From a virus (Duplodnaviria; Caudoviricetes), in IMG/VR virus record IMGVR_UViG_2910510430_000001, positions 1-64,000 of that record: a stretch of DNA of 64,000 nucleotides; one strand, written 5' to 3'. Each line of letters opens with the position of its first letter. Position 1 is the stretch's first letter. The notes beneath the pieces were generated by a model. That model did not search any database and was not told the origin of the DNA. It was given only the letters and a program-made list of their open reading frames with translations. Positions 17,708 through 52,394 of the stretch are shown here, in pieces. A program made the translations under genes and the position numbers.

Positions 17708-17708
17708 C

Positions 17709-17948: not shown

Positions 17949-17953
17949 GTCGT

Positions 17954-17995
17954 TTCTCACAATTGAGAAGGGGGAGGGGGTGCCGCTCAGGCGGC
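17954..17995 (-). promoter_or_regulatory. Bipartite hairpin element, copy 1 (upstream of xis)
   Basis: GCCGC-CTGA-GCGGC, ACCCCCTCCCCC, TTCTCA-ATTG-TGAGAA, 5 nt, ATG. Confidence 0.8.
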
Positions 17996-18478: not shown

Positions 18479-19008
18479 ACGTCGTAGCCCTGTCGCCAGA
18501 GACCATAGCGGCGGACGACCTCGTCGAACTTCTGGCCGGCAACCTCGTCATGGTCGAGGTGAGCCCGGGTCTTCACGCCGCAGGTCAGACGAAGGGCGTC
18601 GGCGACCTCCTTCGCGCTGCTCGCGTCCATGAAGGACTGGAAACCCTTGTCGTCGCAGAGCATGCCCGCGCGCTTGGCGCGGGCTCCCCCCTTCAGCTCG
18701 GGCTCTGCTGCTCGCTGCTGTTCCGGGGCGCTCTCCCCTTCAGCATCGGGCGATTGCGACGGACCATCCTCAGCATCCGGCGCCACGCCATCGCTTTGGT
18801 CATCTGCGGCTTGACCGGTCGGCCCCGCCTGAACTCGATCCTCATTCCGGTTCTCCTGCTGCACGGTTGCGGGGTTCACAAGATCCACGACGACGCAGCC
18901 GTCGATGACGCGGATCTCGTAGCTGTCCGCGTCGATCTGCTGATCGCCCAAGAGGGCGGCCATCGCTTCGCGGATTGGAAAAGTGTGACGGTGGATGACC
19001 TCAGGCAT
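18475..19008 (-). CDS. Hypothetical phage protein
   Basis: C-terminal AGMLCDD..FQSF...LRLTCGV.TRAHLD domain typical of phages. Confidence 0.7.
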   Translation of the reverse strand: MPEVIHRHTFPIREAMAALLGDQQIDADSYEIRVIDGCVVVDLVNPATVQQENRNEDRVQAGPTGQAADDQSDGVAPDAEDGPSQSPDAEGESAPEQQRAAEPELKGGARAKRAGMLCDDKGFQSFMDASSAKEVADALRLTCGVKTRAHLDHDEVAGQKFDEVVRRYGLWRQGYDV

Positions 19009-27868: not shown

Positions 27869-28084
27869 TGAACACCCCGGCGCGCACCTCTACCCGCAAT
27901 CGTGCAAGCGCGCCCTTCGCCGGCATGCCCTCCGTCTTGGTGGGCCTCGTGCAGACCATGCCGGCCTTTCCTTCGTCCTCATCGCTCCGCTCCTTCCGTC
28001 TCGTCTCTGAGACTGAACGTAGCGGCAACAGCTTCCGCAACCTTGGGTGTTTTCCCCAAGGCCTTCGAACCTCGGGAGATCGTC

Positions 28085-29411: not shown

Positions 29412-29526
29412 TCCCTTTCCGCATGGCGTCATGCCGCGACGAGCCATGCGGATCGGCTGCCACTTCGTCTTCGTCCCCGTTGGCGGAGTGGCAGCCATCA
29501 CCCCTCAACCGTGAAGGACTGACCGC

Positions 29527-37257: not shown

Positions 37258-37259
37258 GC

Positions 37260-37706: not shown

Positions 37707-37768
37707 GTCGGAACTCCGTGCGCTGGCCTGCTCGTATAGCGCAGGGACATGCAGGAAGTCAGGTCCGA

Positions 37769-39325: not shown

Positions 39326-39340
39326 GGGTTTCTCCTGTTT

Positions 39341-39382
39341 GCCACGTTTGGCGGTGCATTCGGGCGGGCGATGTGCCCGCCC
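39341..39382 (-). promoter_or_regulatory. Bipartite hairpin element, copy 2 (variant loop AACG)
   Basis: GGGCGGGC-ACATC-GCCCGCCC, linker, GCCA-AACG-TGGC, RBS AGGAG. Confidence 0.65.
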
Positions 39383-39425
39383 TGGTGGTCCTGTTGCGCT
39401 GGGCATGGTGTCTCCTTCGGCTTGG

Positions 39426-39758
39426 TCAGCGGGATAGGGCGGCGCGGAGAATTATTCGAATGTCCGACTCGTGGACGTACAGGCTGCGGTACGGACCCAA
39501 TGCCTCTTGCGCTGCCCGCACCACGTCATCGGGCACGTCAGATGCGATGGGCTGGGGGGCGGCGAAACCGGAGAACGCGAAGTCACGCCCCGCCTTCTTC
39601 TCGTCGTCGTAGGCGTGCAGCAACCAACCCGGCTCGGGATGCCACTCGGTCGAGGCGTAGCTGATGCCGATCGGACGAACGGTGCGGGTCGCAGTCTCGC
39701 CGCGCCAGTTGGTATAGGTGAATGTCAGCGGCGGAATTTCGGTCTTCGCGTCTTCCAT
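39426..39758 (-). CDS. Stand-alone WYL-like domain protein
   Basis: FTYTNWRGE...RTVRP......EPGWLLHAYD..K...RDF. Confidence 0.72.
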   Translation of the reverse strand: MEDAKTEIPPLTFTYTNWRGETATRTVRPIGISYASTEWHPEPGWLLHAYDDEKKAGRDFAFSGFAAPQPIASDVPDDVVRAAQEALGPYRSLYVHESDIRIILRAALSR

Positions 39759-39786
39759 GGTCGTCTCCATGCCGGCGCTGCCGGCG

Positions 39787-39825
39787 TTCACGATTGAGGG
39801 GGGAGGCGGCGGGTCACCCTGCCGC
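39787..39825 (-). promoter_or_regulatory. Bipartite hairpin element, copy 3
   Basis: GCGGCAGGG-TGA-CCCGCCGC, CTCCCCCC, TCA-ATCG-TGA. Confidence 0.75.
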
Positions 39826-39852
39826 TCAGGTCAAGTCAGAGGTGAGGTCAGG

Positions 39853-41025
39853 TCACACCCGCATCGGCATCAGGACAGCCGACCAGGTCGGCGAGGCGCC
39901 GCGAATGACGGCGGGGCTGCCGCAATCGGAGAACCGCATTTCGAACTCCTCGCCGATCTCGCCGGCGACGGCTGCCAGGGCCTTGAGGTAGCTGGCGTTG
40001 AAGCCGATCTCGAACTCGTCCACCTCGGTGGTGCAGGTGATGTCGGCCTCGGCCGTCCCGGCATCCGGGCTGCGCACCATCAGCCGGCAGCTGCCGGGCG
40101 ACAGCGTCAGCTTCACCGCCCTGCCGCGCTCGGTCGAGATCACGGTGACGCCGTCGACTGCGGCGGTCAGGGCATCGCAGTTGAAGGTCACCGCCTTGTC
40201 GTTCGCCGACGGGATCACCCGCTGGTAGTCGGGGAAGGTGCCGTCGATGACCTTCGACGTGATGGTGATGCGGCCGAAGGTCATCCGGACCTTGGCCGTC
40301 TGCACCTCGATCGCCACCTCGCCCCGCTCCCGGGACATCAGCTTCTCAACCACCTCGATTGTCTTCCGGGGGATGATCACGCCGGGGATTGCGGCGGTGC
40401 CGGCAGGCGCCGTCACCGTCTTGATGGCGAGGCGGTGCCCATCGGTGGCGACGAAGCGCAGGTCGCCTTCGCCGTCCCCGGTCACCGGCCGGTGCATGAA
40501 GATCCCGTTGAGGTAGTAGCGGGTCTCCTCCTTGGAGACCGCGAAGGACACCATGCCGAAGGACCCGGTCAGGGCCGGCGCCGACATGACGAAGCTGTGA
40601 GTGAAGGTGCCGGGCTCGACCTCTGGATAGTCGGCGACTGGCAGGGTCGGCAGCTTCATCGACGCGGCGCCGTGGGTGATCGTCAGCGGAGCGTCTTCGT
40701 CGCCGCCGAGCGGCGCCGTCAGCTCGATCGTGTCGGCCTTGGACTTGGTGACCAGGTCGCGCAGCGAGTGTGCCGGAACGGTCGCAGCGAAGCGCCGATC
40801 GAGAGCCTCGCACGGCACCCGGACAGCGATCTCGATGTCGAGGTCGGTGGCAGTGATGATCAGCTGGTCGGCATAAGTCGACAGCTTGACGTTCGACAGG
40901 ATCGGGATGGTGTTGCGCTTCTCAATGACCTTGATCGCGGCGTCGAGGCCGGCCTTCAGGTGGGTGCGGGCCATCGTAGCGACAGCCTGGTGCATGTTGG
41001 CGCGGATGGGGGTGACGTTCGTCAT
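39853..41025 (-). CDS. dnaN: DNA polymerase III beta sliding clamp, phage-encoded
   Basis: TIPILSNV, ATDLDI, SKEETRYYLNG, ATDGHRL, IDGTFPDYQRVIP, IGFNASYL, VLMPMRV. Confidence 0.93.
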   Translation of the reverse strand: MTNVTPIRANMHQAVATMARTHLKAGLDAAIKVIEKRNTIPILSNVKLSTYADQLIITATDLDIEIAVRVPCEALDRRFAATVPAHSLRDLVTKSKADTIELTAPLGGDEDAPLTITHGAASMKLPTLPVADYPEVEPGTFTHSFVMSAPALTGSFGMVSFAVSKEETRYYLNGIFMHRPVTGDGEGDLRFVATDGHRLAIKTVTAPAGTAAIPGVIIPRKTIEVVEKLMSRERGEVAIEVQTAKVRMTFGRITITSKVIDGTFPDYQRVIPSANDKAVTFNCDALTAAVDGVTVISTERGRAVKLTLSPGSCRLMVRSPDAGTAEADITCTTEVDEFEIGFNASYLKALAAVAGEIGEEFEMRFSDCGSPAVIRGASPTWSAVLMPMRV

Positions 41026-41048
41026 GTCGATGTCCTTCTGTTGAGGGT

Positions 41049-41079
41049 CCGCACAATTGCGGGGGTCGGCATGCTGCCG
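41049..41079 (-). promoter_or_regulatory. Bipartite hairpin element, copy 4
   Basis: CGGCA-GCA-TGCCG, ACCC, CCGCA-ATTG-TGCGG. Confidence 0.8.
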
Positions 41080-41181
41080 GGACACGGCCACCACGACGGT
41101 GACCGTCGCCTTGCGGCATGATCCTGTCTTCATCTATGTCAGGTGAGACGTGACGCTCCTTTTCTAGCCGAAGGCAAAAAT

Positions 41182-41718
41182 ATGTTCGATTCGCTTTCAT
41201 CGATCTGGAAGTATTTCGAGGCGAGCGAGAAGGTCGGGTGGATTGCCGTTACCGCTGGTAGCCTTCTCATGCTGTCCGCCGAGGTTGACCATGGATGGCT
41301 AACCGGCCTCGACTTCGTCGGTCTTGCCGGTCAGACCGTCATAATTGTCGGCGCCGCGATCGTGGTCGTGAACGCGGTGAGCAGGGCGTGGATGTCGTTC
41401 TCCAAGTGGAGCGAGGGCAGACGCGAGCGGCTCGACACAGCTGTTGCTGAACGAAAGGCGGAGGAGAATGCTCTAGCCAACATCGAGGCGCTCGATGAGC
41501 ATGGGTTGGTACAATTGATCTGGCTCCTGGCGAACGATCGGCGACGTTTTCAGTACTCCAACGTCCTCTTTCGAGCTGGCGTAGCAAGGCACGCACCCAA
41601 CTGTACGGCGATCTACGAGTTACGTCCGATTTTCTGGGAGAACCGCGAGCGTCTTTTGGAAGAGCATGACAAACTCCGTATTCCGCAGCAATTCCCTGCA
41701 ACTAGGTACGTCGCCTAG
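41182..41718 (+). CDS. Membrane-anchored moron (superinfection-exclusion-like topology)
   Basis: Two N-terminal TM segments plus helical domain; antisense to cluster; lower GC. Confidence 0.6.
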   Translation: MFDSLSSIWKYFEASEKVGWIAVTAGSLLMLSAEVDHGWLTGLDFVGLAGQTVIIVGAAIVVVNAVSRAWMSFSKWSEGRRERLDTAVAERKAEENALANIEALDEHGLVQLIWLLANDRRRFQYSNVLFRAGVARHAPNCTAIYELRPIFWENRERLLEEHDKLRIPQQFPATRYVA

Positions 41719-42930
41719 CTATGCCTCGAGGTGGATCGCTTCGCCGAACGGCGTCCGGCTGCTGACGTTCTGAAACTCCCGGGGATCGCCTGGTACCGCC
41801 CACAGCACCGGGCAATCGGGCTCGTCGCCGAAGTCGGTGACGTATAGGTCGGTCAGGTAGACGACGGCCCTGGCGTCGCTGGCATTCTCCCGCACCCATT
41901 CGAAAGTGTCGGCGAAGGCGGTGCCGCCGCCGCCTAGCATGCGCAGATCCACGACATCGCCGGTCTCGTATTCGTCATGTCCCTGCACGGCGGCGTCGGC
42001 ATAGATCACCGTCACCTTGTCGATCGCGCCGTCGCCGAAGGCGCCGTTGATCTCGGCGGCGAAGGCGTCGAGCATGTCCTTCGTGATGGAGCCGGACGTG
42101 TCGACAGCGAAGACGATGTGCGACACGCCGTCAGACACCAGCGACGGCAGGACGTAGCCCATCTGCAGGAAGCGGCGGTTCGGCCGGGACCAGGAATAGT
42201 CCCGGTTCTGCGACTGGTCGATGAAGCGGCGGAACACCTGCCGCCAGTCGACCTTGGGCTGCAGAAGCTGGTCGACGATGCGCTGCAGGGCACCGGGCAG
42301 GGAGCCGGCGTTCGCCGCCTTGGCGATCGACGCGGCCTGACGGATCTTCACCGTCATTTCCGCCTCAGCTGCCGCCTTGGCCGCCTCGTCATGCTGGCCG
42401 CAGGCATCGAGCACCTCGCCGCAGCCGCCGGGATCGTTGCGCTCGCCGGCGCCCGGCTGGCCGGTGCCCTGGCCGCCATCCTCATCCTCGTCATCGAGGA
42501 GGCGATAGATTTCCTCGGCACCGAGCCCGGTGTATTTGCGGTCGAGCAGGCCACCTTGCGGCATGACCATCGGCGGGCGCTTCAGGTTCTTCGTCTTCTG
42601 GATCTCGTCGGCATAGTCCTGCAGCTCGACGTTGATCGCGAAGTCTGCGGCGATGTTGAACCGGCGGTGCTGCCGGTCGCCCCGCCTGGTGTGGTGCATC
42701 GAGGCATTGTGCATGATCTCGTGGGCGATGACGAAGACCAGCTCCTCACGGCTCAGCTTGTCGACGAAGGGCGGGTAATAGATCAGCCGGCGGCTGTCGG
42801 TCGCCATCGTCTTGCAGATGGCGCCGTCGGAGTCCTCCTCGAGCATCAGCTGCACGGCGAGGGCGCCGAAGAAGGGGTGATCCCACATCAGGGCGGTGCG
42901 GGCGGAGAGGATCTTGGTCTCGGTGTCCAT
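41719..42930 (-). CDS. DUF2201-like metallopeptidase + VWA domain protein
   Basis: MATD, AHEIMH (HExxH), VDTSGS MIDAS, GGGTAF, YLTDL. Confidence 0.9.
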   Translation of the reverse strand: MDTETKILSARTALMWDHPFFGALAVQLMLEEDSDGAICKTMATDSRRLIYYPPFVDKLSREELVFVIAHEIMHNASMHHTRRGDRQHRRFNIAADFAINVELQDYADEIQKTKNLKRPPMVMPQGGLLDRKYTGLGAEEIYRLLDDEDEDGGQGTGQPGAGERNDPGGCGEVLDACGQHDEAAKAAAEAEMTVKIRQAASIAKAANAGSLPGALQRIVDQLLQPKVDWRQVFRRFIDQSQNRDYSWSRPNRRFLQMGYVLPSLVSDGVSHIVFAVDTSGSITKDMLDAFAAEINGAFGDGAIDKVTVIYADAAVQGHDEYETGDVVDLRMLGGGGTAFADTFEWVRENASDARAVVYLTDLYVTDFGDEPDCPVLWAVPGDPREFQNVSSRTPFGEAIHLEA

Positions 42931-42938
42931 GGCGGGGT

Positions 42939-42960
42939 CTCACGATTGAGGGAAGGGTTG
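42939..42960 (-). promoter_or_regulatory. Hairpin element, copy 5 (second hairpin and linker only)
   Basis: CAACCCTTCC, CTCA-ATCG-TGAG, 8 nt, ATG. Confidence 0.75.
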
Positions 42961-43025
42961 TTTGACGTTCGGTAGGGTGTAATAGCTGTCTGATCGTAGA
43001 GGAAACAGCTGATGCGGAGGTCAGA

Positions 43026-43349
43026 ATGAAGACGTTCTTCAGGTGCGTACTCATCGCCGCGGGCCTAGCGTCTTCTACCGCAGCTGGTGATGAACATTCT
43101 GTCGGGGGTAAGTCTGCTCTCGAGCGTGGTTCCCCTGCCCCATCTGGCGGTCTGCCCCCCGCCGCAAATGTGCCGGAAGCAGAGGATGGATGCGTGGTCA
43201 AAATCGAAGGTGCGGGGAGCTCATTCGCCGACGAGTACTGCAAGCCCGAAAATACACCGATCGACGATGGGACTGTCGCCACTTCGAATGATGGGGTTGA
43301 AGGACAAGGAACCATGGATATGATGAACTCGGAAGCCGTTCAGAAATAG
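43026..43349 (+). CDS. Exported moron protein
   Basis: Signal peptide MKTFFRCVLIAAGLASSTAA; GGAGG RBS. Confidence 0.6.
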   Translation: MKTFFRCVLIAAGLASSTAAGDEHSVGGKSALERGSPAPSGGLPPAANVPEAEDGCVVKIEGAGSSFADEYCKPENTPIDDGTVATSNDGVEGQGTMDMMNSEAVQK

Positions 43350-43363
43350 AGTAGAAGAGCAGA

Positions 43364-43939
43364 ATGCATCTCTTCACTCTATGGCTCCTGATTGCTGTCG
43401 GTTCAGCCACGCTGTGTTGGTCTGCAGTGTTGAGGTTCCTAAAGCGAGGCGAAAGATTAGAGGCTTTCGTGGTGTTGCTTGGGCTAACCGCAATCGCAGC
43501 AACTGCGGGGCTTACAGGCGGACTTAGCCGAGTCGGTGCTGTCGGAAGCGTTATCGCAGCTGCACTTGGACTCATGAGCGGCGTCGTACTATTTTTGTTT
43601 GCGGCAGATCGATCGAAGGGCACGATCGTATCGATCGGAGCGATCGCGTTCTCTTTGTCACTAAGTCTCGCCTATTTCGAAGCGTCTGAGCTAAGGGCAG
43701 TACCAGAGAGGTACGCTTACTGGCGTGACCGCTGTGTTTCGATATATTCCGGTTCTACCGTTGTCGCGGACGAGAATATCGTGAACGTCCGCGACGGCAT
43801 TTTCGGCCGAACGTGTGCCCGCATCATCAGGTCTGAGCAGGATAAGCTTCTGGCCGAGGACGAGCCATTGTTGCAGGGCTTGTGGGATCGGCTAGCTGCC
43901 GGAGTGTGCTCGATTCTACCGATCTGCAGAGAGCGATAG
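43364..43939 (+). CDS. Multi-pass membrane moron protein
   Basis: About 4 hydrophobic segments; lower GC. Confidence 0.6.
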   Translation: MHLFTLWLLIAVGSATLCWSAVLRFLKRGERLEAFVVLLGLTAIAATAGLTGGLSRVGAVGSVIAAALGLMSGVVLFLFAADRSKGTIVSIGAIAFSLSLSLAYFEASELRAVPERYAYWRDRCVSIYSGSTVVADENIVNVRDGIFGRTCARIIRSEQDKLLAEDEPLLQGLWDRLAAGVCSILPICRER

Positions 43940-43954
43940 TTTTAGGCGAGACAA

Positions 43955-44941
43955 TCAATTCAACGTCACGTCCTGGTTCTCTGTCGCCCACGTCGTGAAC
44001 GCCTGAGTGTGCGACAGGCCGGGGTCACGGCGCACCGCGTCGATCACCATCATGATGTTGAACTCGCGGCTGATCCGACTGGTGTAGGCCATGGCCGCGC
44101 CGAAGGTCTTGCGGTCCACCTTGCGGGCAAGGCCGGCGCTGATCGCATACTTGGCGGCCGGATCCTTGACGAGCGGGGCGCCGGTCGGATTGGCCAGCAC
44201 CAGGTCGAGCGAGGGCAGATCCTTGTAGACCCGGACGAAGCCTTCGAATTCGGCCGCTGCGCCTTCACCGACGAGGCCGGTGACAAGCGACAGGCGGAGC
44301 GCTTCCGGAGCGTTGGCGATCTTGGCCACCTGCGACCATGCCCGGGGCGTCGGGAACGCCCGCAGGTCGTTCCCTTCCATGTTGTGCAACAGGCCGGAGC
44401 GAAACCGCACGAAGGCGACGACCATCGGGTCGACGTTGTTCTTGAACGCCCAGGCGGAGAAGGATTCGACATCCGGCTCTATGTCGATGTGGGCGAAGCG
44501 GTTGGCGAGCGCAGTGGGCATCCGCTGCGCCGCCGCCCGGTCCGCCTGCCGGTTGCCGGCGGCGATGATCCGCCAGCCCTCGGGTAGGCGATACTCACCG
44601 ACCTTGCGGTCGAGCACCAGCCCGAAGCATGCCGCCTGCACGCTGGCCGGTGCCGCGTTCAGCTCGTCCATGAAGAAGATGCCTTCCTCGCCGTCGCGAT
44701 CGGCACGGGGCAGGTCATCCGGGGCGAGCCACTTGGCAGTGTCGCCATTGACGGAGGGCAGGCCGCGGAGATCGACCGGATCGCGGAGGATGGCGCGGAA
44801 GTCGATCATCGGGATGTCGCGATCGTTGGCGATCTGGCGGACGGTGTCCGACTTGCCGACGCCTGGCGCTCCCCACAGGAAGACGGGGATGTCGGCGTCG
44901 AGGTAGGCAGCGAGCGCCTTGGTAGCGTTCATCAGGTTCAT
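43955..44941 (-). CDS. MoxR/CbbQ-like AAA+ ATPase
   Basis: GAPGVGKS, FFMDELN, IIAAGN, ALANRF, PTPRAW. Confidence 0.92.
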   Translation of the reverse strand: MNLMNATKALAAYLDADIPVFLWGAPGVGKSDTVRQIANDRDIPMIDFRAILRDPVDLRGLPSVNGDTAKWLAPDDLPRADRDGEEGIFFMDELNAAPASVQAACFGLVLDRKVGEYRLPEGWRIIAAGNRQADRAAAQRMPTALANRFAHIDIEPDVESFSAWAFKNNVDPMVVAFVRFRSGLLHNMEGNDLRAFPTPRAWSQVAKIANAPEALRLSLVTGLVGEGAAAEFEGFVRVYKDLPSLDLVLANPTGAPLVKDPAAKYAISAGLARKVDRKTFGAAMAYTSRISREFNIMMVIDAVRRDPGLSHTQAFTTWATENQDVTLN

Positions 44942-44957
44942 GGGTCTCTTCCTTCGT

Positions 44958-44990
44958 TGCACAATTGCAGGGGGGGTGAGCGTCAGCTCA
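44958..44990 (-). promoter_or_regulatory. Bipartite hairpin element, copy 6
   Basis: TGAGC-TGAC-GCTCA, CCCCCCC, TGCA-ATTG-TGCA. Confidence 0.8.
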
Positions 44991-45281
44991 GTTCTTGGCG
45001 TTGCGCCATTGCTGGCAGATCATGTCGGCGTTGCCGGAGCTCGAGAATTGGCCGGCGATATTGCCGGCCATCATTGCTGTTTCGGAGAGCGTGGTGCTCA
45101 CCGATTTGCCTTGCGCCTCGGCGGACTTCTCCACCGCACGCATCCAAACCTCCTCGGTGATCTCGCCGGGACAAAGCGCCTTAACCGTGCCGATGAGGAT
45201 GGCCGCCTTCGGGAAGTCGTCGGCGGCGAGAGCCGGGGCAGAGAGACTGCCGAGTAGCGCGGCAAGCAGAAGCTTCTTCAT
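44988..45281 (-). CDS. Exported protein
   Basis: Signal peptide MKKLLLAALLGSLSAPALA; one Cys pair. Confidence 0.7.
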   Translation of the reverse strand: MKKLLLAALLGSLSAPALAADDFPKAAILIGTVKALCPGEITEEVWMRAVEKSAEAQGKSVSTTLSETAMMAGNIAGQFSSSGNADMICQQWRNAKN

Positions 45282-45466
45282 CGGTGTTCCTTCGGCTGTT
45301 GCGCACGTCGGCGCTTGCGAGGTTCAGGCGGGGGCGTATCGACCCCCGCCATCTTTCTCAACTCTGCGACACCCTTCTGCAATCCGTCCTCGTATTTCGC
45401 GAACGGCATCCAGAAGGCTTCGCGATCGGTGACGCCGGCAAGGCGTTCGAGTTTGCCGATGTTCAT
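45278..45466 (-). CDS. Small hypothetical protein
   Basis: ATGA-coupled both sides. Confidence 0.6.
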   Translation of the reverse strand: MNIGKLERLAGVTDREAFWMPFAKYEDGLQKGVAELRKMAGVDTPPPEPRKRRRAQQPKEHR

Positions 45467-45723
45467 GCGGCCTCGCTCTCGTCGTCGACAGCGGGATCGA
45501 AAGCCTGCGGCCCGACAAGATCGCGGGCAGATACGATCATCGCCTCGAAGGCAGAGAACTCATCGAGCAGGCGATCGTCGGACAGGTCAGCGCGCATATC
45601 TTCGGGATCGTCATAGTCCTCGTTATCTGCGGCGAAGCAATCGTCGAGGGTCATCAGGCGCGCCATGTTCTTGGTGTAGGCGAGGAGGTCTCCATAAGAG
45701 GGTTGAGTTTTAGGAAGCGACAT
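45463..45723 (-). CDS. Small acidic hypothetical protein
   Basis: Coupled operon member. Confidence 0.6.
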   Translation of the reverse strand: MSLPKTQPSYGDLLAYTKNMARLMTLDDCFAADNEDYDDPEDMRADLSDDRLLDEFSAFEAMIVSARDLVGPQAFDPAVDDESEAA

Positions 45724-46555
45724 CTTCTTCATCCTCCTCGTTCTGCACGGGCACCAGCACCCATGCTTGCACCCAGGTGCCGTCGTTTCCGCGCGATGCC
45801 TCGGCACCCTCGTCGATGTTGATCTCGTCGCTGCCGTACTGTTCGCGGGCGGCATGGACTTCGTCGTCGGTGGCGAGGGTGGCGATGGGCTTCGGCTCTA
45901 GGTCGACGAGCTCGTGATGGTCGTCCTCGTTCTCGTCGCGGATGTAGATGACCGTCGGGTTGGTGCCGTCCACCTCAGTTTCGATCCCATCATAGTTGAT
46001 AGAGCCAATCAGTCCGCTTTCGTTCAGCTCCTTGATCTTTTGAAGCGCACTATCGGGGGACGTCGTTTCAACAGTGATGTCGTAATAGACGCGGGCATCG
46101 ACGCCGACCTTGCAGCTGAATTCCTGCATCACTGGCTCGTCGTCGCCGGGCTCGTCATCCTCGTTAGGCTCGAAAAGGCCGGTCTCGACCGCATGGCGCA
46201 GAGTGTTCTTGATCGCCGCGTCACAGCCGGTCTCGTGCCATTCGGTCAAAAGAGCCTTGCCGGCGGCATACTCCGCGCTAGCCTGCCACTCGGCATAGGT
46301 TTCGAAGCCGAGTTCCTTTCCGCGTTCGTGGCCGATGTGCGGGGGCATGTCGGAAAGCGTCGGCCCGGTTGGCGGCTCGGGAAGGTGGCGGACGTCGAAG
46401 GCAAACTCGCTGTCTTCGCCTTCCGATATATCAGTCGTGAACCAATAGGTACGGGGGCCTTGGCCGAGGTCGTCGTCTTTGTAGACGCACCAGATCGAAA
46501 CGTTCTGATGGCGGATCATGCGCTCGGGCGCGACCCATTCTTGGCGGTAGGGCAT
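45710..46555 (-). CDS. Acidic multi-module hypothetical protein
   Basis: GGAGG RBS; very acidic; C-terminal GTWVQAWVLV. Confidence 0.7.
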   Translation of the reverse strand: MPYRQEWVAPERMIRHQNVSIWCVYKDDDLGQGPRTYWFTTDISEGEDSEFAFDVRHLPEPPTGPTLSDMPPHIGHERGKELGFETYAEWQASAEYAAGKALLTEWHETGCDAAIKNTLRHAVETGLFEPNEDDEPGDDEPVMQEFSCKVGVDARVYYDITVETTSPDSALQKIKELNESGLIGSINYDGIETEVDGTNPTVIYIRDENEDDHHELVDLEPKPIATLATDDEVHAAREQYGSDEINIDEGAEASRGNDGTWVQAWVLVPVQNEEDEEDVAS

Positions 46556-46569
46556 GGTGTCCTCCAGGA

Positions 46570-46797
46570 TTACGGGGCGATCAGTTCGCTGTGGCCTTCG
46601 CTGAAGCCGCCGCCGTAGCAGCGCCGGCATTCGAGGCGGTCGAAGTCTTCACCGTCGGCGGCGCCCCATATCTTGCGCCGGCGGAGCGCCGGGAACATGC
46701 GCTCCAGCATGTTGCCGGGGCCGGCCAGGCGCTCAGGCTTGGCGTCCAGATTGTCGATGTGGGTGACGTGTCCGCAGTTCGCGCAGCGGCCGAGCAT
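46570..46797 (-). CDS. Zinc-finger-like small protein
   Basis: CANC and CRRC. Confidence 0.6.
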   Translation of the reverse strand: MLGRCANCGHVTHIDNLDAKPERLAGPGNMLERMFPALRRRKIWGAADGEDFDRLECRRCYGGGFSEGHSELIAP

Positions 46798-47042
46798 CAG
46801 GCTTGCTCTTCGACTGGCACCATGACCAGCTGGCTGAACACCCAGCTGACACCGTCTTCGTCGAGGAAGACCATTTCGCCATCGCGCTCGACCGTCTCTG
46901 CCTCGTCCCAGAAGACGTCGGTGCCGCCGGCATACTCCGGGACGCGGGTCTCGGGGTCGATGCCAGTGATGTTGGCGCGGCCAGATAGCCGCTCCATTGT
47001 GCCGACGATCGGCGAGCCGGTCGGGGACTGAAAGTCTGCCAT
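46797..47042 (-). CDS. Small acidic hypothetical protein
   Basis: GGAG RBS. Confidence 0.65.
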   Translation of the reverse strand: MADFQSPTGSPIVGTMERLSGRANITGIDPETRVPEYAGGTDVFWDEAETVERDGEMVFLDEDGVSWVFSQLVMVPVEEQA

Positions 47043-47059
47043 ATGATGTTCTCCGAGTT

Positions 47060-47098
47060 GCACAATTGCGGGGAGGAGGAGGCGGGTCGGAGCCCGCC
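47060..47098 (-). promoter_or_regulatory. Bipartite hairpin element, copy 7
   Basis: GGCGGG-CTCCGA-CCCGCC, TCCTCCTCCCC, GCA-ATTG-TGC. Confidence 0.75.
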
Positions 47099-47257
47099 CC
47101 CGGTAATCAGGTTGTCACGGTTTCTTGGCGCCGCACTTTCGGCAGAAGAGGCTAGCTTTTGTTAGGGGCTCGCCGGTTCCAAGGACGACCAAGGGGAGCG
47201 GCTTGCGCCATTCGTGAGCGCAGACTTTCCGCTTAAGCCAGAGCGATATCGCCCCTC

Positions 47258-48178
47258 TCACGCCAGGAACCCCGACACATCCTCGAGGATCTTCGCCGCT
47301 TCGGCGGCGACGTCCCGGCGCTTGCCCTCATCCTTGCGCAGCACCGCCGCATCATAGGCGGCGAGCGGGGCGAGCTTGTCGGCCATCGCGGCCAGCTCCG
47401 GATCGCCGGTGATGTTGAGCGACGGCAGGATGCCGATCAGGTCGCGGACGTTCTCGACGAGCGAGTCCTTGAAGATGCCCTCCGAACGGTCGCCCTTGCC
47501 CTTGGCCGGCTTGTAGCCGTTGAGCCGCTCGACCATGCGGCCGGTCACCTCGGCGATGCGGCGATAGACATCCGACACGGCGGTCTTCGTCGCCTTCTGC
47601 ACATGCGCCTCGATCTCGGCGCGGATCTCGGCCGCCTGCGCCTCGCTCATCGACACACGGAAGTCGTCGGCTGACGGGACCGGCATGACCTTCATGTCGA
47701 TCGAGAACTTGTCCCGGATCTCTGAGACGGTCGGGTAGTCGTCGAGGTTGAACATGCCGTTGAGGCGGACCCGGGCGTCGGCGACGTGCTTCGGATACTC
47801 GGCGATGAAGGCGTCGACGGCGGCGTCGAACTCGCCCTTCACGCGGCGAAACCAGGCGGCGTGCTGCATGTAGAGCTGGTTCGACATGATGCGGGAGCCG
47901 CCGTCGAGCCACGGCAGGGTGCGCTCGTTGAACTCGGTGCGGGCGGCGTTGGCGATCTTGGCGATCGGATCGAGCGCGGTCTTGTCGAGGAGCAGCTTGT
48001 TATAGCGGCCGGCGTCGGCGGCGGCGTTGTGCGAGGAGTTGACCTCGTCGGTGATCTGGCGATCGAGGCGGCGCCCGGTCCACTGCGACATGGACAGCGT
48101 CACGATCATGGCGCGGGCGGCGAGGGTGTTGGAGGCGACCGAGTCAGTGGCCGCACGGATTGGGGAAATGGCGTTCAT
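47258..48178 (-). CDS. DUF3150-like protein
   Basis: QWTGRRLD, ERTLPW, F...YP, R.EGIFKDSLVENV...LNITGDP (recalled family pattern). Confidence 0.7.
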   Translation of the reverse strand: MNAISPIRAATDSVASNTLAARAMIVTLSMSQWTGRRLDRQITDEVNSSHNAAADAGRYNKLLLDKTALDPIAKIANAARTEFNERTLPWLDGGSRIMSNQLYMQHAAWFRRVKGEFDAAVDAFIAEYPKHVADARVRLNGMFNLDDYPTVSEIRDKFSIDMKVMPVPSADDFRVSMSEAQAAEIRAEIEAHVQKATKTAVSDVYRRIAEVTGRMVERLNGYKPAKGKGDRSEGIFKDSLVENVRDLIGILPSLNITGDPELAAMADKLAPLAAYDAAVLRKDEGKRRDVAAEAAKILEDVSGFLA

Positions 48179-48200
48179 GCTGGTGTTCCTTTCGGAGGGT

Positions 48201-48232
48201 GCCACGATTGGCGGGGGTGCTCAGAGGTGAGC
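48201..48232 (-). promoter_or_regulatory. Bipartite hairpin element, copy 8
   Basis: GCTCA-CCTC-TGAGC, ACCCCC, GCCA-ATCG-TGGC. Confidence 0.8.
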
Positions 48233-48248
48233 GGGGGAGCTGGGTCTG

Positions 48249-48557
48249 CTACTGGCTGTCGCCTCGCCAGTCGCGATAGTCGTCTTCGGGCGGCTCGTAG
48301 ATGCCGTCGAGCGTCCAGAAGCCGATGGCGAGGATGTCTTCGCACACGTCGGTCGGGTCCTGGCCGTAGAACCCGCGCCATTCCTGCACGTTGAAGCGCT
48401 GGATGACGGAGTAGATCTCGGCGTCGTCAGCGTCGCTGACATCAAGCCAGAGGACGGTGCCGGTCTGCACGTCGACGGTGAGGGTGCCGTTGTTGCCGAA
48501 GACCTCCATCGTCGGGCGAGAGGTCTTCATCGGCATGGGCGAGCGTTCGGGCTGCAT
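48249..48557 (-). CDS. Acidic hypothetical protein
   Basis: AAGGAAG RBS. Confidence 0.65.
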   Translation of the reverse strand: MQPERSPMPMKTSRPTMEVFGNNGTLTVDVQTGTVLWLDVSDADDAEIYSVIQRFNVQEWRGFYGQDPTDVCEDILAIGFWTLDGIYEPPEDDYRDWRGDSQ

Positions 48558-48571
48558 GGTCTTCCTTTCGT

Positions 48572-48602
48572 GCCACGATTGGCGGGGTGCCGGCGGACCG
48601 GC
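48572..48602 (-). promoter_or_regulatory. Bipartite hairpin element, copy 9
   Basis: GCCGG-TCCG-CCGGC, ACCCC, GCCA-ATCG-TGGC. Confidence 0.8.
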
Positions 48603-48671
48603 GGCGTCACTCTGAAGCGAACTTCAGAGTGGTTGATAGTGCTAGAAGACGGGAGCTAGAGGCGCAGGCGA

Positions 48672-49163
48672 CTAAAGCCGACTGCAGGAGCCCGCTGCCA
48701 TCGACAGTTTCGCACCGGGCACTGCAATCCGAGGTGCATAAAAGAATGTCATCCGATCGAGGTCAAAATTGTATGACAAAGATAGGTTCGCGGTGCACAG
48801 AATTGTGCCGCCGAGAAGATATGATTGATTCTCATTCAGGGGGTAGCATTCCGAAAGTTTTCGGATCTTACTTCGTTCGTCGCTGACAAATACTGTGTAG
48901 TTTGATGCGTATTCCTCAAACCGATAATCTTTCGGCATATTCGGCGTGACGGTCAGTTGGAACGCGTGGTCGTTGGGGTTCTCATCCAACTCCGATACAT
49001 CCCCAGTATCATCCATACGAAATGCCGCGATGTGAGCAGGTATGCAGAGATAGGTCCCGGCGTAACGCTCGTCGTTGTGAGGCGGTGTCCATGTCCCCTG
49101 CGAACACGCCTCGCTGATGGGCCAAATGATGGAACAAAGCACAACGGCTGCTCGCTTGAGCAT
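48672..49163 (-). CDS. Low-GC exported moron protein
   Basis: Signal-peptide-like start, GGAGG RBS, clearly lower GC. Confidence 0.65.
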   Translation of the reverse strand: MLKRAAVVLCSIIWPISEACSQGTWTPPHNDERYAGTYLCIPAHIAAFRMDDTGDVSELDENPNDHAFQLTVTPNMPKDYRFEEYASNYTVFVSDERSKIRKLSECYPLNENQSYLLGGTILCTANLSLSYNFDLDRMTFFYAPRIAVPGAKLSMAAGSCSRL

Positions 49164-49294
49164 TCAAGACCTCCTACTGGGGATTGGACTCCGCAAGAAC
49201 CATACTTTGTCGTTCCGGTCATCGAGCCGCAAGCGAAGCGTCCGCGCCGCCGGACGGGCCATCGGGCGCCCAAGGCAGCTATACGGTCGGTAAC

Positions 49295-49651
49295 CTAAAA
49301 CCATACCCGCCGACTGAAAAGCACTGCCGCTCCACAGACGGGTGGCAGCGATTCGGGATCATCGAGCGGGTTCCGGGTCAGCCAGGCGTTCCGATAGATC
49401 GCCGTGGCAGTGATGTTGCGGGGCTGAGATCCAAGCGCACTGTTCTCGCCGACGAACATATCACGGCGCTCGCCCTGATAGAGGACCGTCAGGTGCTCGA
49501 AGCCACCGGGCTGGAATATCGGCGCCAGCAACTCCTTCAGGTGGTCGTAGCTGGGCTCCGGCTTCAGCATGACGGTCCGCTCCTCGGGAGCGCCAATTAC
49601 GGCCGGGATGATGGTCATGAAGGTCTCGATAGACCCTGGGCGCGCGGGCAT
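49295..49651 (-). CDS. Hypothetical phage protein
   Basis: DMFVGE...N..ATAIY...PVCGAAVLF pattern. Confidence 0.65.
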   Translation of the reverse strand: MPARPGSIETFMTIIPAVIGAPEERTVMLKPEPSYDHLKELLAPIFQPGGFEHLTVLYQGERRDMFVGENSALGSQPRNITATAIYRNAWLTRNPLDDPESLPPVCGAAVLFSRRVWF

Positions 49652-49965
49652 CAGTACGGCGCCCCATTCTCCGGCTCGCCGTAGCAGGCGCGCAGGTTGC
49701 CGTCGGTCGGCTCTTCGGCGGCAAGGCGGCAGGCGGCGAGATCCTGGCCGACGAGGAGCACATCGTCGTCGGGGATAGGGTCCGCCCCGATCGCGATAAG
49801 GCAGGCCACCGGGTCGGAATCGAACTCACACATGGAGGGTGCCGACCAGAGAATGGCCCGGTCCTGCGGCAGGGTGACGAGGGGCGACGGCTTGGTCACG
49901 GTGACCGCGCCGAGGAGCGCGCCGAACAGGCCGGCGGCGGTAATCGAGAGGGTGCTGAAATGCAT
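49651..49965 (-). CDS. Exported/membrane-anchored Cys-containing protein
   Basis: Hydrophobic N-terminus, four Cys. Confidence 0.6.
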   Translation of the reverse strand: MHFSTLSITAAGLFGALLGAVTVTKPSPLVTLPQDRAILWSAPSMCEFDSDPVACLIAIGADPIPDDDVLLVGQDLAACRLAAEEPTDGNLRACYGEPENGAPY

Positions 49966-49979
49966 GGTGTATCCTTCGT

Positions 49980-50013
49980 TGCCACGATTGGCAGGGGGTC
50001 GGCCTAGCGGCCG
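49980..50013 (-). promoter_or_regulatory. Bipartite hairpin element, copy 10
   Basis: CGGCC-GCTA-GGCCG, ACCCCC, TGCCA-ATCG-TGGCA. Confidence 0.8.
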
Positions 50014-50047
50014 GTAGGCGAGCGCGGAGACGCTCTCCAGTCTGACG

Positions 50048-50398
50048 CTAGTGGAAGTGTCCGGCAGGCCGGGAGGGATCGAAGTGCTGAACGCACTTCG
50101 CGATTGCGGCCATGGTTGAATGCGTCTCGTCGGTGACGGGCAGCATCATCATGGCGTCAGGGTTCGTCGGGTGCTCGACGCCTGTCAGAGGAATGACGCT
50201 CACCTGTGTCTGGAGCCGGAGCACGGGCTCGTCGGTGACGCGGATGGTCAGACCTGGGAATGCCGTCTCGCAGTAGCGAGTAAGCGGCTCGATCCACGCG
50301 GAGCCGCCCCATTCTGGCCCGTAGGGAGGCGTGACGTAGAACTCCGTGATCCGCTTTTCGGCGGTCTGGGGGCGGCTGGAAGCGACGTTGATTTCCAT
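50048..50398 (-). CDS. Hypothetical protein, probably LexA-regulated
   Basis: AGGAG RBS; own promoter with SOS box. Confidence 0.65.
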   Translation of the reverse strand: MEINVASSRPQTAEKRITEFYVTPPYGPEWGGSAWIEPLTRYCETAFPGLTIRVTDEPVLRLQTQVSVIPLTGVEHPTNPDAMMMLPVTDETHSTMAAIAKCVQHFDPSRPAGHFH

Positions 50399-50414
50399 GA
50401 AGGCTCTCCTGTTT

Positions 50415-50449
50415 GTTCTATATTCGTTCCGCATAGGAGGAGGAGTCAA
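50415..50449 (-). promoter_or_regulatory. Alphaproteobacterial LexA box overlapping a sigma70 promoter
   Basis: GTTC-TATATTC-GTTC (50415-50429); TTGACT -35 at 50449-50444. Confidence 0.75.
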
Positions 50450-50604
50450 TACGTGTTCTTTTGGAAGGAACGGCGCCTGACGAGGATGGCCAGGCGCCGT
50501 GCGGGATTTACCGCCGGGCGCGCGCCGCGCTGCGATCTACATGGCATGCTCCTTTCGCTGGAGAGCAGGGAAGGGCCGGCGGATGTTTGCGCCGGCCGAA
50601 CGGG

Positions 50605-50742
50605 TCAGGCGCGCACCTCCCAAAGGATGCGGCGAACCTCGTCGGCAGCCTCGCGCGAGGTGGGCTCGCGGCCCAGGCGGGCGGCGAGCTTGGCCCAGAT
50701 CGTATGCGGGCCGGCGTTGTGCCAGGTGACGGTGACGATCAT
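50605..50742 (-). CDS. Small hypothetical protein
   Basis: ATGA-coupled. Confidence 0.55.
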   Translation of the reverse strand: MIVTVTWHNAGPHTIWAKLAARLGREPTSREAADEVRRILWEVRA

Positions 50743-50951
50743 GCGCGCACCTTCGTCTTGAAGTGCTTCACCTCGCCATCGAACTGGCACAGGTCGCAGG
50801 AGGCGGCGGACTCGTTGGTCCATTCGTGGCCGCCGTGGACTTCTTCCGTGCCGTCGGTGGTGAGCTGCACGGTGGTCAGACAGACGATCTGAATGCCGTG
50901 ATCCTTGCCGCATTGCGGGCAGGCCATGCCCCATTGTGATCGGATGCTCAT
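50739..50951 (-). CDS. Small zinc-ribbon protein
   Basis: CPQC and CDLC. Confidence 0.7.
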   Translation of the reverse strand: MSIRSQWGMACPQCGKDHGIQIVCLTTVQLTTDGTEEVHGGHEWTNESAASCDLCQFDGEVKHFKTKVRA

Positions 50952-51127
50952 GCGCGCACCTCGGGGCGGCTCGCGTCTGCGATGACCGGCAGAATGCGGC
51001 GCCCTTCCATGGCGCGGTTGCGGCGCTCCTGGGCGTCGAGAAAGCGGCGGATGTCTTCGCGGGCTTGGCGCCGGGCGCGCTGGGCGAAGGTCTCGAAATG
51101 CGGATGGCGCAGGTCGGACGTGGGCAT
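50948..51127 (-). CDS. Small Arg-rich hypothetical protein
   Basis: GGAG RBS; basic helix (AQRARRQAREDIRRF). Confidence 0.6.
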   Translation of the reverse strand: MPTSDLRHPHFETFAQRARRQAREDIRRFLDAQERRNRAMEGRRILPVIADASRPEVRA

Positions 51128-51150
51128 GACGGTTCTCCGGTCTGGAGGTG

Positions 51151-51183
51151 CGGCACGATTGCCGAGGAAGGGCCGAGCGGCCC
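51151..51183 (-). promoter_or_regulatory. Bipartite hairpin element, copy 11
   Basis: GGGCC-GCTC-GGCCC, TTCCT, CGGCA-ATCG-TGCCG. Confidence 0.78.
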
Positions 51184-51293
51184 GAAGATGGCTCGCGCGG
51201 GCGCGGCCATCGTCATGCAGCTCGGGTAGGGCAACGGGCGAAAGGCAGGCCCGTTGCCGGTTGGTGGGCCGCGAATGCGGTGGGACCGGGCCA

Positions 51294-51509
51294 TCAGTAG
51301 CCCAGCCAGGAGCGGACGTCATCCAGTGAGACGTGGCCGCGGTCGTCGATGGGGAAGGTCGTCGTCTCGTCGAACACGCGGTCGTCGAGGAAAGCGATGC
51401 CATCGGCCGGCCCAAGGCAGGGGGCGGAGGCGAGCAGGCCGTCGGGCGTGACGGTGGCGAACTGGCCGTGATCGAGGATGAAGGCGACGGCGGACGTAGC
51501 GGTGCACAT
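51294..51509 (-). CDS. Small hypothetical protein
   Basis: GGAG RBS. Confidence 0.6.
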   Translation of the reverse strand: MCTATSAVAFILDHGQFATVTPDGLLASAPCLGPADGIAFLDDRVFDETTTFPIDDRGHVSLDDVRSWLGY

Positions 51510-51530
51510 GGTCAGGATCTCCGATTAGGA

Positions 51531-51562
51531 CGCCACGATTGGCGGGGTTGGCCTAGCGGCCA
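51531..51562 (-). promoter_or_regulatory. Bipartite hairpin element, copy 12
   Basis: TGGCC-GCTA-GGCCA, ACCC, CGCCA-ATCG-TGGCG. Confidence 0.8.
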
Positions 51563-51623
51563 TGTCACGGGACGCCGTAGGGGCGTCCCGTCACGATTGC
51601 AGCTAGGTGGGCAGGGGCGAGGC

Positions 51624-52127
51624 TCAGGCAGCCTTGCGGTCGGCAGCCTTGGGCATCTGGACGACTTCGCCGGCCGGCTTCTTCAGGAGGCGGATTGCGC
51701 CCTCGATGGCGCCGATCGTCTTCGCGGTCGCGCCCTTTTCCTGCATCTTCTTCAGGAACGTCTCGAGGGTCCGGAGTTCGTCGAAGTCGGCGGCGTTCTT
51801 CTTCGCGTCGGTGGCGTACTCAGCCGGGGACACGGTGAAGGCGGTTTCGAGGTCGGACGTCGCCTTGGCGTCATAGGTGAAGGCGAGCGCGTCCTTGTCC
51901 CATGCGACCTTGCCGAATTTCACGGCCCACTTGCGCAGCGCGCCGCGATAGTTGGTCGGCGTCACGTTGTAGAGCGTGTTGAGGTGCGAGGCGCAATGGT
52001 GGACCTCGACATGGTTGATCGCGCCATAGGCGACTTCGTGCGTTGCGGCTGCAAAGGTCGCGGCGACCTTGCCATAGCCTGCAATGCGCTTGGCGAGGGT
52101 CTTACCGGTGAGAATCTTGATGGACAT
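51624..52127 (-). CDS. Hypothetical protein, first gene of the leftward cluster
   Basis: Lys/Ala-rich 167 aa from MSIKILTGK; AAAGG RBS. Confidence 0.7.
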   Translation of the reverse strand: MSIKILTGKTLAKRIAGYGKVAATFAAATHEVAYGAINHVEVHHCASHLNTLYNVTPTNYRGALRKWAVKFGKVAWDKDALAFTYDAKATSDLETAFTVSPAEYATDAKKNAADFDELRTLETFLKKMQEKGATAKTIGAIEGAIRLLKKPAGEVVQMPKAADRKAA

Positions 52128-52148
52128 GGGTTTAGCCTTTCGAGGTTT

Positions 52149-52180
52149 GGCACGATTGCCGTTTCGTTCCGATTGGAACG
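52149..52180 (-). promoter_or_regulatory. Bipartite hairpin element, copy 13
   Basis: CGTTCC-AATC-GGAACG, AAAC, GGCA-ATCG-TGCC. Confidence 0.75.
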
Positions 52181-52394
52181 GCGCAACGGCCGGACCCTTG
52201 CGAGCCCGGCCGTTGAAACTTTCCAATCTGTCGGACGCGGTTTCAGTGGGAACCGCGTCAATCCCGATGTCGCTTTTTTTCCGTTGGTTTGACTATCCAA
52301 CCGCCCATGCCTTTGCGGTTGTGGGGTGCGCGGCCGCTGTGATCGGCATTCAACGGCTTTCAAGGCCGTTTCGCTTTCGGTTATCCCCATCTTG

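Follow-up and report, generated by a model that had tools for sequence, protein, structure and literature searches.

Dispersed, covarying hairpins phased to the ribosome-binding sites of non-structural genes in a lineage of alphaproteobacterial prophages: a candidate RNA tag

What kind of signal is a short stem-loop that recurs, gene after gene, just upstream of the start codons of a prophage? Such an element marks the DNA analyzed here (the window), which consists of the first 64 kb (64,000 nucleotides) of an 83.9-kb provirus record of IMG/VR (IMGVR_UViG_2910510430_000001). Its host belongs to the Hyphomicrobiales, near Aurantimonas, and the phage is a temperate myovirus whose terminase and portal are lambda-like. 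The element, found mainly in the leaders of a leftward array of accessory genes, retains a paired stem and an apex of conserved sequence, is lineage-specific, and is phased to the ribosome-binding site (RBS). It most likely marks non-structural genes for shared post-transcriptional control.

The octamer CAATYGTG occurs 16 times in the window, as compared to 3.67 +/- 1.9 times in shuffled sequences, and none of 100 shuffles reached 16. Twelve matches lie on the minus strand, from 39789 to 52158. The non-random placement claimed in the first-pass annotation, a model's reading of the letters, is thereby confirmed, and the signal proved stronger than stated there. A covariance model of 28 nt (R1) has been built from 55 copies; it separates the copies from noise in the record, and retrieves more than 100 of them in related phages. 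In the whole 84-kb record R1 identified 16 copies, scoring 18.6–27.9 bits, with noise at 12.6 bits or less. Twelve reside in the leftward array, one precedes a xis-like gene, and three are found elsewhere (18854, 27885, 29494). All 16 share the strand of the gene downstream. None was found by R1 among structural or late genes, or in the host flank, and the late operon is free of copies despite gaps of 46–218 nt. The 13 copies listed at first, 12 in the array and one at xis (17958), were all recovered by sequence search, including the CAAACGTG variant at 39343; the list was incomplete, since the sequences at 18854-18881 (minus strand), 27885-27912 and 29494-29521 (both plus strand) are also true copies. 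Leaders are organized in the same order, and feature a C-rich tract, the octamer with complementary flanks, a Shine-Dalgarno (SD) sequence and the start codon.

The anatomy of the element was derived from 117 R1 matches in the window and in the sequences of relatives, all of which (117/117) are on the gene strand. The core consensus on the sense strand is CCC-G-(N)-C-A-[A-N-Y-R]-U-G-(N')-C-A. The C, A, U and G residues of the apex are invariant, save for G·U forms in G159 and G160, and for one copy in contig L031, in which the apex C-G pair is inverted to G-C. The loop features A at position 1 in 102/117 copies, a pyrimidine at position 3 in 112/117, and a purine at position 4 in 115/117 (A in 80, G in 35). 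AUCA is the commonest loop (33/117), and AUUA ranks second among loops ending in A. Stems come in two forms, G-CA/UG-C and G-N-CA/UG-N'-C, which differ by one base pair added symmetrically to both arms. The alignment is ungapped, the stems have no bulge, and the residues flanking the hairpin are G-poor and A/C-rich. Folding predictions show the mini-hairpin in 11 of the 16 window copies. Conservation of apex and loop supports the early view that the hairpin apex is read in a sequence-specific manner.

The N-N' pair is Watson-Crick in all 117 copies (GC in 60, CG in 40, UA in 17), with no mismatches. The next pair outward is GC in 57, CG in 28 and UA in 6 copies, and is missing in the remaining 26, in which the stem measures 3 bp only. 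Pairing was far lower in shuffled and slid controls than at real copies. R1 matches are selected for pairing, and the test was repeated with a pattern blind to it. By this pattern flanks are paired in 117/141 sites located upstream of an SD sequence and a start codon, in 147/470 sites elsewhere, and in 8/22 sites of motif-less phages. The complementarity of the flanking pair, noted from the 13 copies listed initially, holds in all true copies. Orthologous sites were compared between the window and L006, a contig from an uncultured Aurantimonas sp. which is the nearest relative (ATPase 91% identical); double compensatory changes were found in 3 of about 9 pairs. The stem of the copy at 52143..52170 is GGCA/UGCC in the window and GCCA/UGGC in L006, and compensatory swaps distinguish also the copies at 51526..51553 and 39335..39362 from their L006 orthologues. 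Upstream of the ATPase gene the hairpin is kept in 11 relatives with different stems, and several compensatory switches are recognizable among these orthologues.

The strand on which the fold forms is indicated by wobble pairs. Seven copies in contig G159 feature a C-G pair followed by G·U (CG-NNNA-UG), and two more are found in G160, while an antisense-type A·C pair occurs in at most one copy. As G·U replaces A-U in at least 6 copies of these two related phages, and A·C is at most a single event, the fold is assigned to the sense strand, and hence to the mRNA. Because some stems measure 3 bp, and a base pair is inserted symmetrically, the element resembles a hairpin needing a partner more than a DNA site for a dimeric protein. 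Compensatory GC/CG/UA changes, symmetric insertion and sense-strand G·U pairs together support the original proposal of a folded single strand, rather than a double-stranded DNA (dsDNA) operator.

The distance separating the element from the RBS is narrowly set. The UG dinucleotide of the 3' arm precedes the SD core by 5–9 nt in 80/98 copies (mode 7), and the start codon by 16–20 nt in 73/114 copies, which leaves about 5 nt between the end of the hairpin and the SD sequence. In the window UG is found 9–26 nt from the start codon; the interval of 5–28 nt reported earlier agrees with this, being counted from the stem end. Distances from the start that look shorter reflect mostly mis-called starts. 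The interval between the upstream stop codon and the element varies widely, between 4 and over 100 nt. In the element leaders of L002, L004 and G159 (= L111-L115) the SD sequence is very often the identical heptamer GGAGACC, and the entire ~45-nt leader may act as a single, conserved cassette for expression. Two further ideas about the leader were discarded. AUG or GUG triplets across loop and 3' arm open frames of random length and phase to the gene, contrary to what is expected of upstream open reading frames (ORFs) or pseudo-starts. Pairing of the C tract with the SD sequence was rejected as a general feature, as CCCC mismatches GGAG, and minimum free energy folds rarely show such pairing.

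A GC-rich hairpin of no conserved sequence is found upstream of the C tract in about 12–13 of the 16 window copies, and the element had been described as bipartite on this ground. The hairpin is common, but is not an obligatory half, because it is missing in many copies of the relatives, where the upstream stop codon sits 4–6 nt before the C tract; the bipartite layout is therefore common, not defining. The 34 nt upstream of the element are more structured than shuffled sequences (-10.0 vs -6.8 kcal/mol). The description of these hairpins as terminator-like is not supported, as they are never U-tailed, being followed by an A and the C tract. A terminator scan of the minus strand from 37 to 54.4 kb found two terminator-like sites (53032 and 43269), neither of which corresponds to the GC hairpin of a copy, and the lack of a U tract disqualifies the hairpins as intrinsic terminators. 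Promoter readings were also dismissed. By eye, against textbook consensus sequences, the element fits neither sigma-54, nor ECF, nor sigma-70 -10 motifs: the spacing of the invariant A and U is 4 nt instead of 3, no -35 region is conserved, and TGGCAC-N5-TTGC is lacking. A promoter for a phage RNA polymerase was rejected since no polymerase was recognized among the large ORFs.

More than 100 copies of the element have been found in about 20 related records. Carriers are prophages of Aurantimonas, Devosia, Peteryoungia and a Phyllobacteriaceae bacterium, and IMG/VR contigs. They include L006, L002 (Devosia), L003, L004 (Peteryoungia), and the viral contigs L015, L016, L017, L019, L022, L026 and L031. 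The further relatives belong to Devosia, Peteryoungia, a metagenome-assembled genome of the Phyllobacteriaceae, and Mesorhizobium. Carriers bear the element before orthologous as before non-orthologous genes; a DUF3150 gene is preceded by a copy in every relative checked (L006, L002, L004, L003). The invariant apex bases and the A-N-Y-R loop persist in phages whose ATPases are only 46–62% identical, and the same invariant bases are found in phages of four host families. Of 102 IMG/VR loci matching an exact 16-mer, most are chance matches in coding sequence, and about 12 are true multi-copy carriers, some 8 of which are additional to the relatives above. The element appears phage-specific, as first surmised: in whole host genomes R1 matches cluster solely within the prophage, and 150 sampled Hyphomicrobiales genomes gave single R1 matches only. 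Five sequences, G161–G165, lack the element; they have the ATPase, VWA and DUF3150 genes in common with carriers, and different structural modules. No match to cultured phages was obtained by megablast, and protein searches identified distant cultured relatives only. The claim that the motif falls outside described families agrees with searches of Rfam. At the gathering threshold two tRNAs only were detected in the window; a permissive scan of the 37000-54500 interval gave six weak matches, none at a copy.

Copies of one phage tend to change together. The last loop base is G in 16/16 window copies, in 12/13 in L006 and in 7/7 in L026, and is A in the remaining phages of the 117-copy set; most copies in G159 have switched to the G·U form. 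This concerted change between lineages suggests either a reader that co-evolves with its sites, or homogenization between copies.

The element also marks the boundaries of exchanged accessory-gene cassettes. Blocks of homology between the window and L006 begin at 49999, 48216, 44974 and 42952, in each instance within 10 nt of a copy; others begin at 51199 and 41118, about 40–60 nt upstream of a copy and within the upstream hairpin. Blocks end at stop codons, and the genes between them differ. The 18-32 kb region bears copies in the window, although it is element-free in the Mesorhizobium prophage G161. Since blocks start at the element, and the 18-32 kb region bears copies here, the element moves with single genes, or is installed before them. 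The region itself (RecE/RecT, helicase, small genes) is mainly common to G161, and, because it is not found in phages having the structural genes of the window phage, denotes a strong mosaic boundary.

The 12 array copies are all on the minus strand. The first (52143..52170; R1 score 19.7 bits) precedes the first gene of the array, 51624-52127, of the phrog_1448 family. Moving leftward, copies at 51526..51553 (26.5 bits; base-pair probability 0.95), 51146..51173 (24.7 bits), 49975..50002 (25.9 bits; an L006 homology block begins here) and 48566..48593 (26.9 bits) are found before genes encoding short proteins, 51294-51509 (71 residues), 50948-51127 (59 residues), 49651-49965 (104 residues) and 48249-48557 (102 residues), respectively. 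The copy at 48195..48222 (27.9 bits) precedes the DUF3150 gene (47258-48178; Pfam DUF3150), and that at 47053..47080 (25.2 bits) a small gene (~46797-47040). Copies at 44952..44979 and 42933..42960 (24.9 bits each), the latter lacking the upstream GC hairpin and having an SD-like GAGAC across its 3' arm, are located before the MoxR-like AAA ATPase gene (43955-44938) and a DUF2201 VWA-like/metallopeptidase gene (41719-42930). The leftmost copies, at 41044..41071 (25.7 bits), 39781..39808 (27.3 bits) and 39335..39362 (24 bits; loop AACG), mark the genes for a phage DnaN sliding clamp (39853-41025; Pfam), a WYL-domain protein (39426-39770; Pfam WYL) and a DUF4942 methyltransferase-like protein (37769-39325). 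A stray CAATCGTG at 51592-51599, also on the minus strand, is not a member; it has no C tract and no R1 match, and is excluded from the family because its flanks are unpaired, no gene is found behind it, and the sequence is not conserved in L006.

Outside the array, the minus-strand copy at 17950..17977 (21.4 bits), 9 nt from the ATG of the xis-like gene (17709-17948), has the longest stem (UUCUCA/UGAGAA; pairing probability 1.00). A second minus-strand copy (18854..18881; 18.6 bits; loop ACCG) precedes 18475-18834. Two copies are on the plus strand: one (27885..27912; 23.8 bits) is located after a cro-like gene (27596-27868) and before 27935-28102, the other (29494..29521; 22 bits; loop ACCG) before an Acb2/Tad1-like gene (29527-29799). 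The latter encodes, on the plus strand, a 90-residue protein with an Acb2/Tad1 hairpin domain (Pfam PF24729, E=5e-18), likely a cyclic-nucleotide sponge (anti-CBASS/Thoeris).

The prophage adjoins tRNA-Tyr and tRNA-Gly genes. A 415-residue ORF beside tRNA-Gly (16535-17782, minus strand) ends with a tyrosine recombinase-like H-x4-T-x2-Y motif (HSNVKTTLRYV); its product, for which Pfam, NCBIfam, PHROGs and PDB gave no match, is probably a highly divergent tyrosine integrase, the only recombinase seen. The integrase/xis region is followed by a leftward RecE/RecT/helicase operon, by the gene for a CI-like repressor (26878-27501), by the cro-like helix-turn-helix gene, on the plus strand, and by a rightward replication operon extending up to about 37 kb. 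A TTGACA box at 27559-27564 (plus strand) is followed 16–19 nt on by -10-like sequences (TGCTAA/TAAGGT), and the cro-like ATG is found 6 nt further downstream. The cro-like mRNA, divergent from the repressor gene, is probably leaderless, or nearly so. The leftward accessory array, of 15 kb, runs from 52.2 to 37.3 kb. Late genes start beyond a stretch of about 2 kb (52230-54248) between the array and the packaging genes, in the L006 counterpart of which no gene is called. Just upstream of the first array copy are a 9-bp inverted repeat (GACGCGGTT ... AACCGCGTC, ~52235-52259) and a palindrome, GTTCC-AATC-GGAAC (~52174-52187), which is kept in L006. The TerL protein (GpA family; 55547-58672, plus strand) measures 1041 residues, and its ATPase domain starts only at residue 406, a layout compatible with a large insertion or extension.

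How might the element act? The reading that we prefer, with reservations that still slightly outweigh our confidence, is that of a cis-acting hairpin of the sense-strand mRNA, serving as an RNA operator or tag that is linked to translation and recognized by a sequence-specific factor. The hairpin would sit in the G-poor leader of non-structural genes, about 5 nt before the SD sequence, and the factor would read it at the translation-initiation region. So placed, the factor would be on the platform side of the 30S subunit, and could either block or assist 30S binding. Ligands acting in this way upstream of the SD sequence are established for ThrRS and ribosomal-protein operators. Translation initiation of early, lysogeny-switch and accessory genes would be controlled jointly, the likeliest effect being repression by occlusion, and activation the alternative. 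The upstream GC hairpin would be an accessory, possibly shielding the 3' end of the cistron before it, or insulating neighboring cistrons. A translational role is favored because of the tight phasing to the SD sequence. A broader proposal, to which we give slightly less credit, is that of a post-transcriptional regulon of alphaproteobacterial temperate myoviruses, in which one phage protein would read a 12–14-nt hairpin at 10–16 genes per genome, and switch their translation or stability jointly. With similar caution, the targets would be early, switch, excision and anti-defence genes, their hairpins featuring C-G and A-U apex pairs and an A-N-Y-R loop; equally tentative is the idea that reader and site co-evolve, at loop position 4 (G/A) and at the second pair (A-U/G·U).

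The reading factor is probably encoded by the phage, given that changes of the last loop base, or of the second pair, affect all copies of a lineage at once. In a phylogenetic profile 51624-52127, 35769-36065, 36357-36989, 54248-54949 and 54949-55656 are, with structural genes, present in all carriers and absent from non-carriers; none of these candidates has an informative family or structural match (Pfam, PHROGs, NCBIfam, PDB). Four of the window genes had been proposed as trans factors at the outset, and these candidates hold up poorly. No relative has a homologue of the WYL protein, which is unique to the window phage, and the 50948-51127 product has homologues only in L006 and L031. The product of 36357-36989 is found lineage-wide and has no family match. 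Also lineage-wide is 51624-52127, but it is found in T7-like podophages too, and has no recognizable RNA-binding fold. This phrog_1448 gene is the first of the array in carriers where it could be located, and its distant homologues (L096:623-1159, L102:919-1449, and others) reside in the first 1–3 kb of T7-like podophages, as in Pseudomonas NV1 and Rhizobium RHEph27/RHEph15, in which the gene is at the left end; in Curvibacter P26059B the homologue is found near one end (36.2 of 41.3 kb). Its role may be that of a first-expressed protein for host takeover or anti-defence. ESM Atlas returned nothing but unnamed viral clusters.

Several observations weigh against a dedicated reader and a translational tag. 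Family and PDB searches found no RNA-binding protein among the lineage-specific genes, and the AlphaFold model of the 51624-52127 product (pLDDT 74) gave no convincing fold match (best Z 5.4). Some array genes located after intergenic gaps have no element. In the xis and VWA-like copies an SD-like sequence, GAGA(A/C), is located within the 3' arm, as the first reading had noticed, and this implies a somewhat different logic. Lineage-wide loop switches could result from homogenizing recombination rather than from co-evolution with a reader, and the phasing could partly reflect inheritance of the whole ~45-nt leader as a cassette.

Other explanations compete with a translational tag. The element could be RNA punctuation, a host or phage endoribonuclease cutting the polycistronic transcript in or beside the C tract; the GC hairpin would protect the upstream 3' end, and the mini-hairpin would cap the downstream 5' end, as at the RNase III sites of T7 early RNA. 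The order of hairpin, C tract, mini-hairpin and SD sequence suits this model, as do the structured upstream region and the phage specificity of the element. The array, of 15 kb, features neither U-tailed terminators nor sigma-70 promoters inside, and is likely transcribed as one long RNA for this reason. We consider punctuation unlikely, given that the upstream hairpin is absent from many copies, and that operon-first genes bear the element too, though they need no separation from an upstream cistron. Family searches of the lineage genes identified no nuclease candidate, and C-rich sequences are not known targets of RNase E or RNase III. A leader module requiring no factor, which would keep the SD sequence unpaired or dock on the 30S platform, and boost initiation at internal cistrons, is a little less plausible. 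The host ribosome would be its reader, in keeping with the tight SD phasing, the G-poor, A/C-rich flanks, the same invariant bases across phages of four host families, and the presence of copies at some intergenic gaps, and at none of the sites where a gene start overlaps the upstream stop. Yet host genes make no use of such a module, nor do late phage genes after gaps; an insulator alone would not hold the C, A, U and G residues and the A-N-Y-R loop invariant, and base switches made in concert within single lineages would be difficult to account for.

Two models based on transcription or DNA exchange appear improbable to a like degree. In nut-like antitermination C tract and hairpin would be the equivalents of boxA and boxB, and an N-like factor, loaded on RNA polymerase, would allow the enzyme to pass the GC hairpins which recur between genes. 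The succession of a conserved single-stranded tract and of a hairpin whose loop is conserved and whose stem covaries is reminiscent of such sites, and two copies, one directly after the cro-like gene and one in the leader that opens the array, have the positions of nutR and nutL in lambda. The number of sites, 12–16 per phage against two in lambda, speaks against the model, as do the 4-nt A-N-Y-R loop, which is not a GNRA-like pentaloop, the GC hairpins without U tracts, and the RecE/RecT operon left of the repressor, which starts without a copy. The tight SD phasing would be unexplained, and no N-like protein has been recognized, such proteins being small and poorly conserved. Alternatively, the element could be a PeSL-like boundary of DNA cassettes, its stem-loop a terminator and its motif the next promoter, or a mere recombination linker, serving the modular shuffling of accessory genes. 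Precedents exist (PMC4122927, PMC2839356), and the data on mosaicism fit: window/L006 blocks start within 10 nt of the element, end at stops, and differ between, and the 18-32 kb region, common to a motif-less phage, yet bears copies in the window. A promoter, however, fails to explain Watson-Crick covariation, symmetric base-pair insertion and sense-strand G·U pairs. No -35/-10 consensus is found, transcription starting 7 nt after the motif would hit the SD sequence, and no phage RNA polymerase was recognized. Any conserved repeat of 16–20 nt may in addition give shuffling as a by-product.

The hypothesis of an RNA-level signal can be tested directly by mutating the loop, breaking the stem and restoring it through compensatory changes, because covariation is clear, G·U pairs are on the sense strand, and phasing to the RBS is fixed. 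Genes marked by the element have switch, excision, replication-accessory and anti-defence functions (the Acb2/Tad1-like sponge), and the element may reveal their post-transcriptional coordination in temperate phages. It provides a compact, portable control module proximal to the RBS, and a covariance model for the annotation of an uncultured phage lineage. If the regulon proposal were true, covariation would have defined, for the first time in a dsDNA phage, an RNA-operator regulon with multiple sites, which could also explain the role of SAS/ESAS-type motifs. Dispersed start-associated motifs have reportedly been known in mycobacteriophages since 2011, and the element is an independent, alphaproteobacterial example of dispersed gene-start motifs.

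Among known systems, some resemble the element in parts only. The GTTRRRY / RYYYAAC cores of integron attC sites are lacking; copies are confined to prophages, unlike the genome-wide REP-type hairpins with their cognate recombinase, and the only recombinase seen is the tyrosine integrase at 16535-17782. In T4, RegB and RegA exemplify phage readers which act on a short RBS motif and shut off many early genes jointly; RegB, however, cuts GGAG in the SD sequence and RegA binds around the AUG, and neither site is a covarying hairpin. No homologue of either was found in the window phage. The lambda nut sites have a conserved single-stranded tract and then a hairpin with conserved loop and free stem, and the positions after a cro-like gene and in an early-operon leader recur here. 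They differ in number (2 against the 16 of the window phage) and in loop type, all 117 copies having 4-nt, A-N-Y-R loops in place of the GNRA-like pentaloop of boxB; neither boxA, nor an N-like protein, nor U-tailed terminators were found, and the element is phased to the SD sequence. The MS2 operator (AUUA/AUCA tetraloop; PMC13720505) is, as the element, a small RBS hairpin with a 4-nt A-N-Y-A loop, the bases of which are read, and a covarying stem. It is a single site featuring a bulged A and the start codon inside; the element has no bulge and lies before the SD sequence in 12–16 copies, its loop ends in G in some lineages, and it resides in a dsDNA phage having no coat-like protein.

PeSLs of T4-type phages (PMC2839356, PMC4122927) are nearest in cassette behavior. 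In both cases a stem-loop and a conserved motif are located before accessory ORFs, mosaic junctions of close relatives fall at the motif, and motifs vary slightly between phage pairs. The conserved part of PeSLs is a sigma-70 early promoter, whereas at no copy of the element was a promoter consensus found, and conservation concerns a paired stem-loop located about 5 nt before the SD sequence. The nearest described phenomenon is that of the SAS/ESAS motifs. The SAS of Cluster K mycobacteriophages is a 13-bp GGGATAGGAGCCC at the start codon (PMC3203893). In common with the element are 11–19 copies per genome, in a single orientation, directly before start codons of the non-structural genome half only, an upstream inverted repeat at about half of the copies, a consensus varying by phage sub-lineage, and retention at orthologous genes. 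A role in translation is suspected for both. The 13-bp SAS sequence is not found here. SAS includes the SD sequence itself, while the element is a covarying hairpin before a separate SD; ESAS arms are conserved over 17 bp, while the upstream hairpin of the element has no conserved sequence; hosts are Actinobacteria in one case and Alphaproteobacteria in the other, and sequences are unrelated. The element belongs, with these motifs, to the dispersed gene-start cis elements of phages, and the evidence for its structure is unusually clean.

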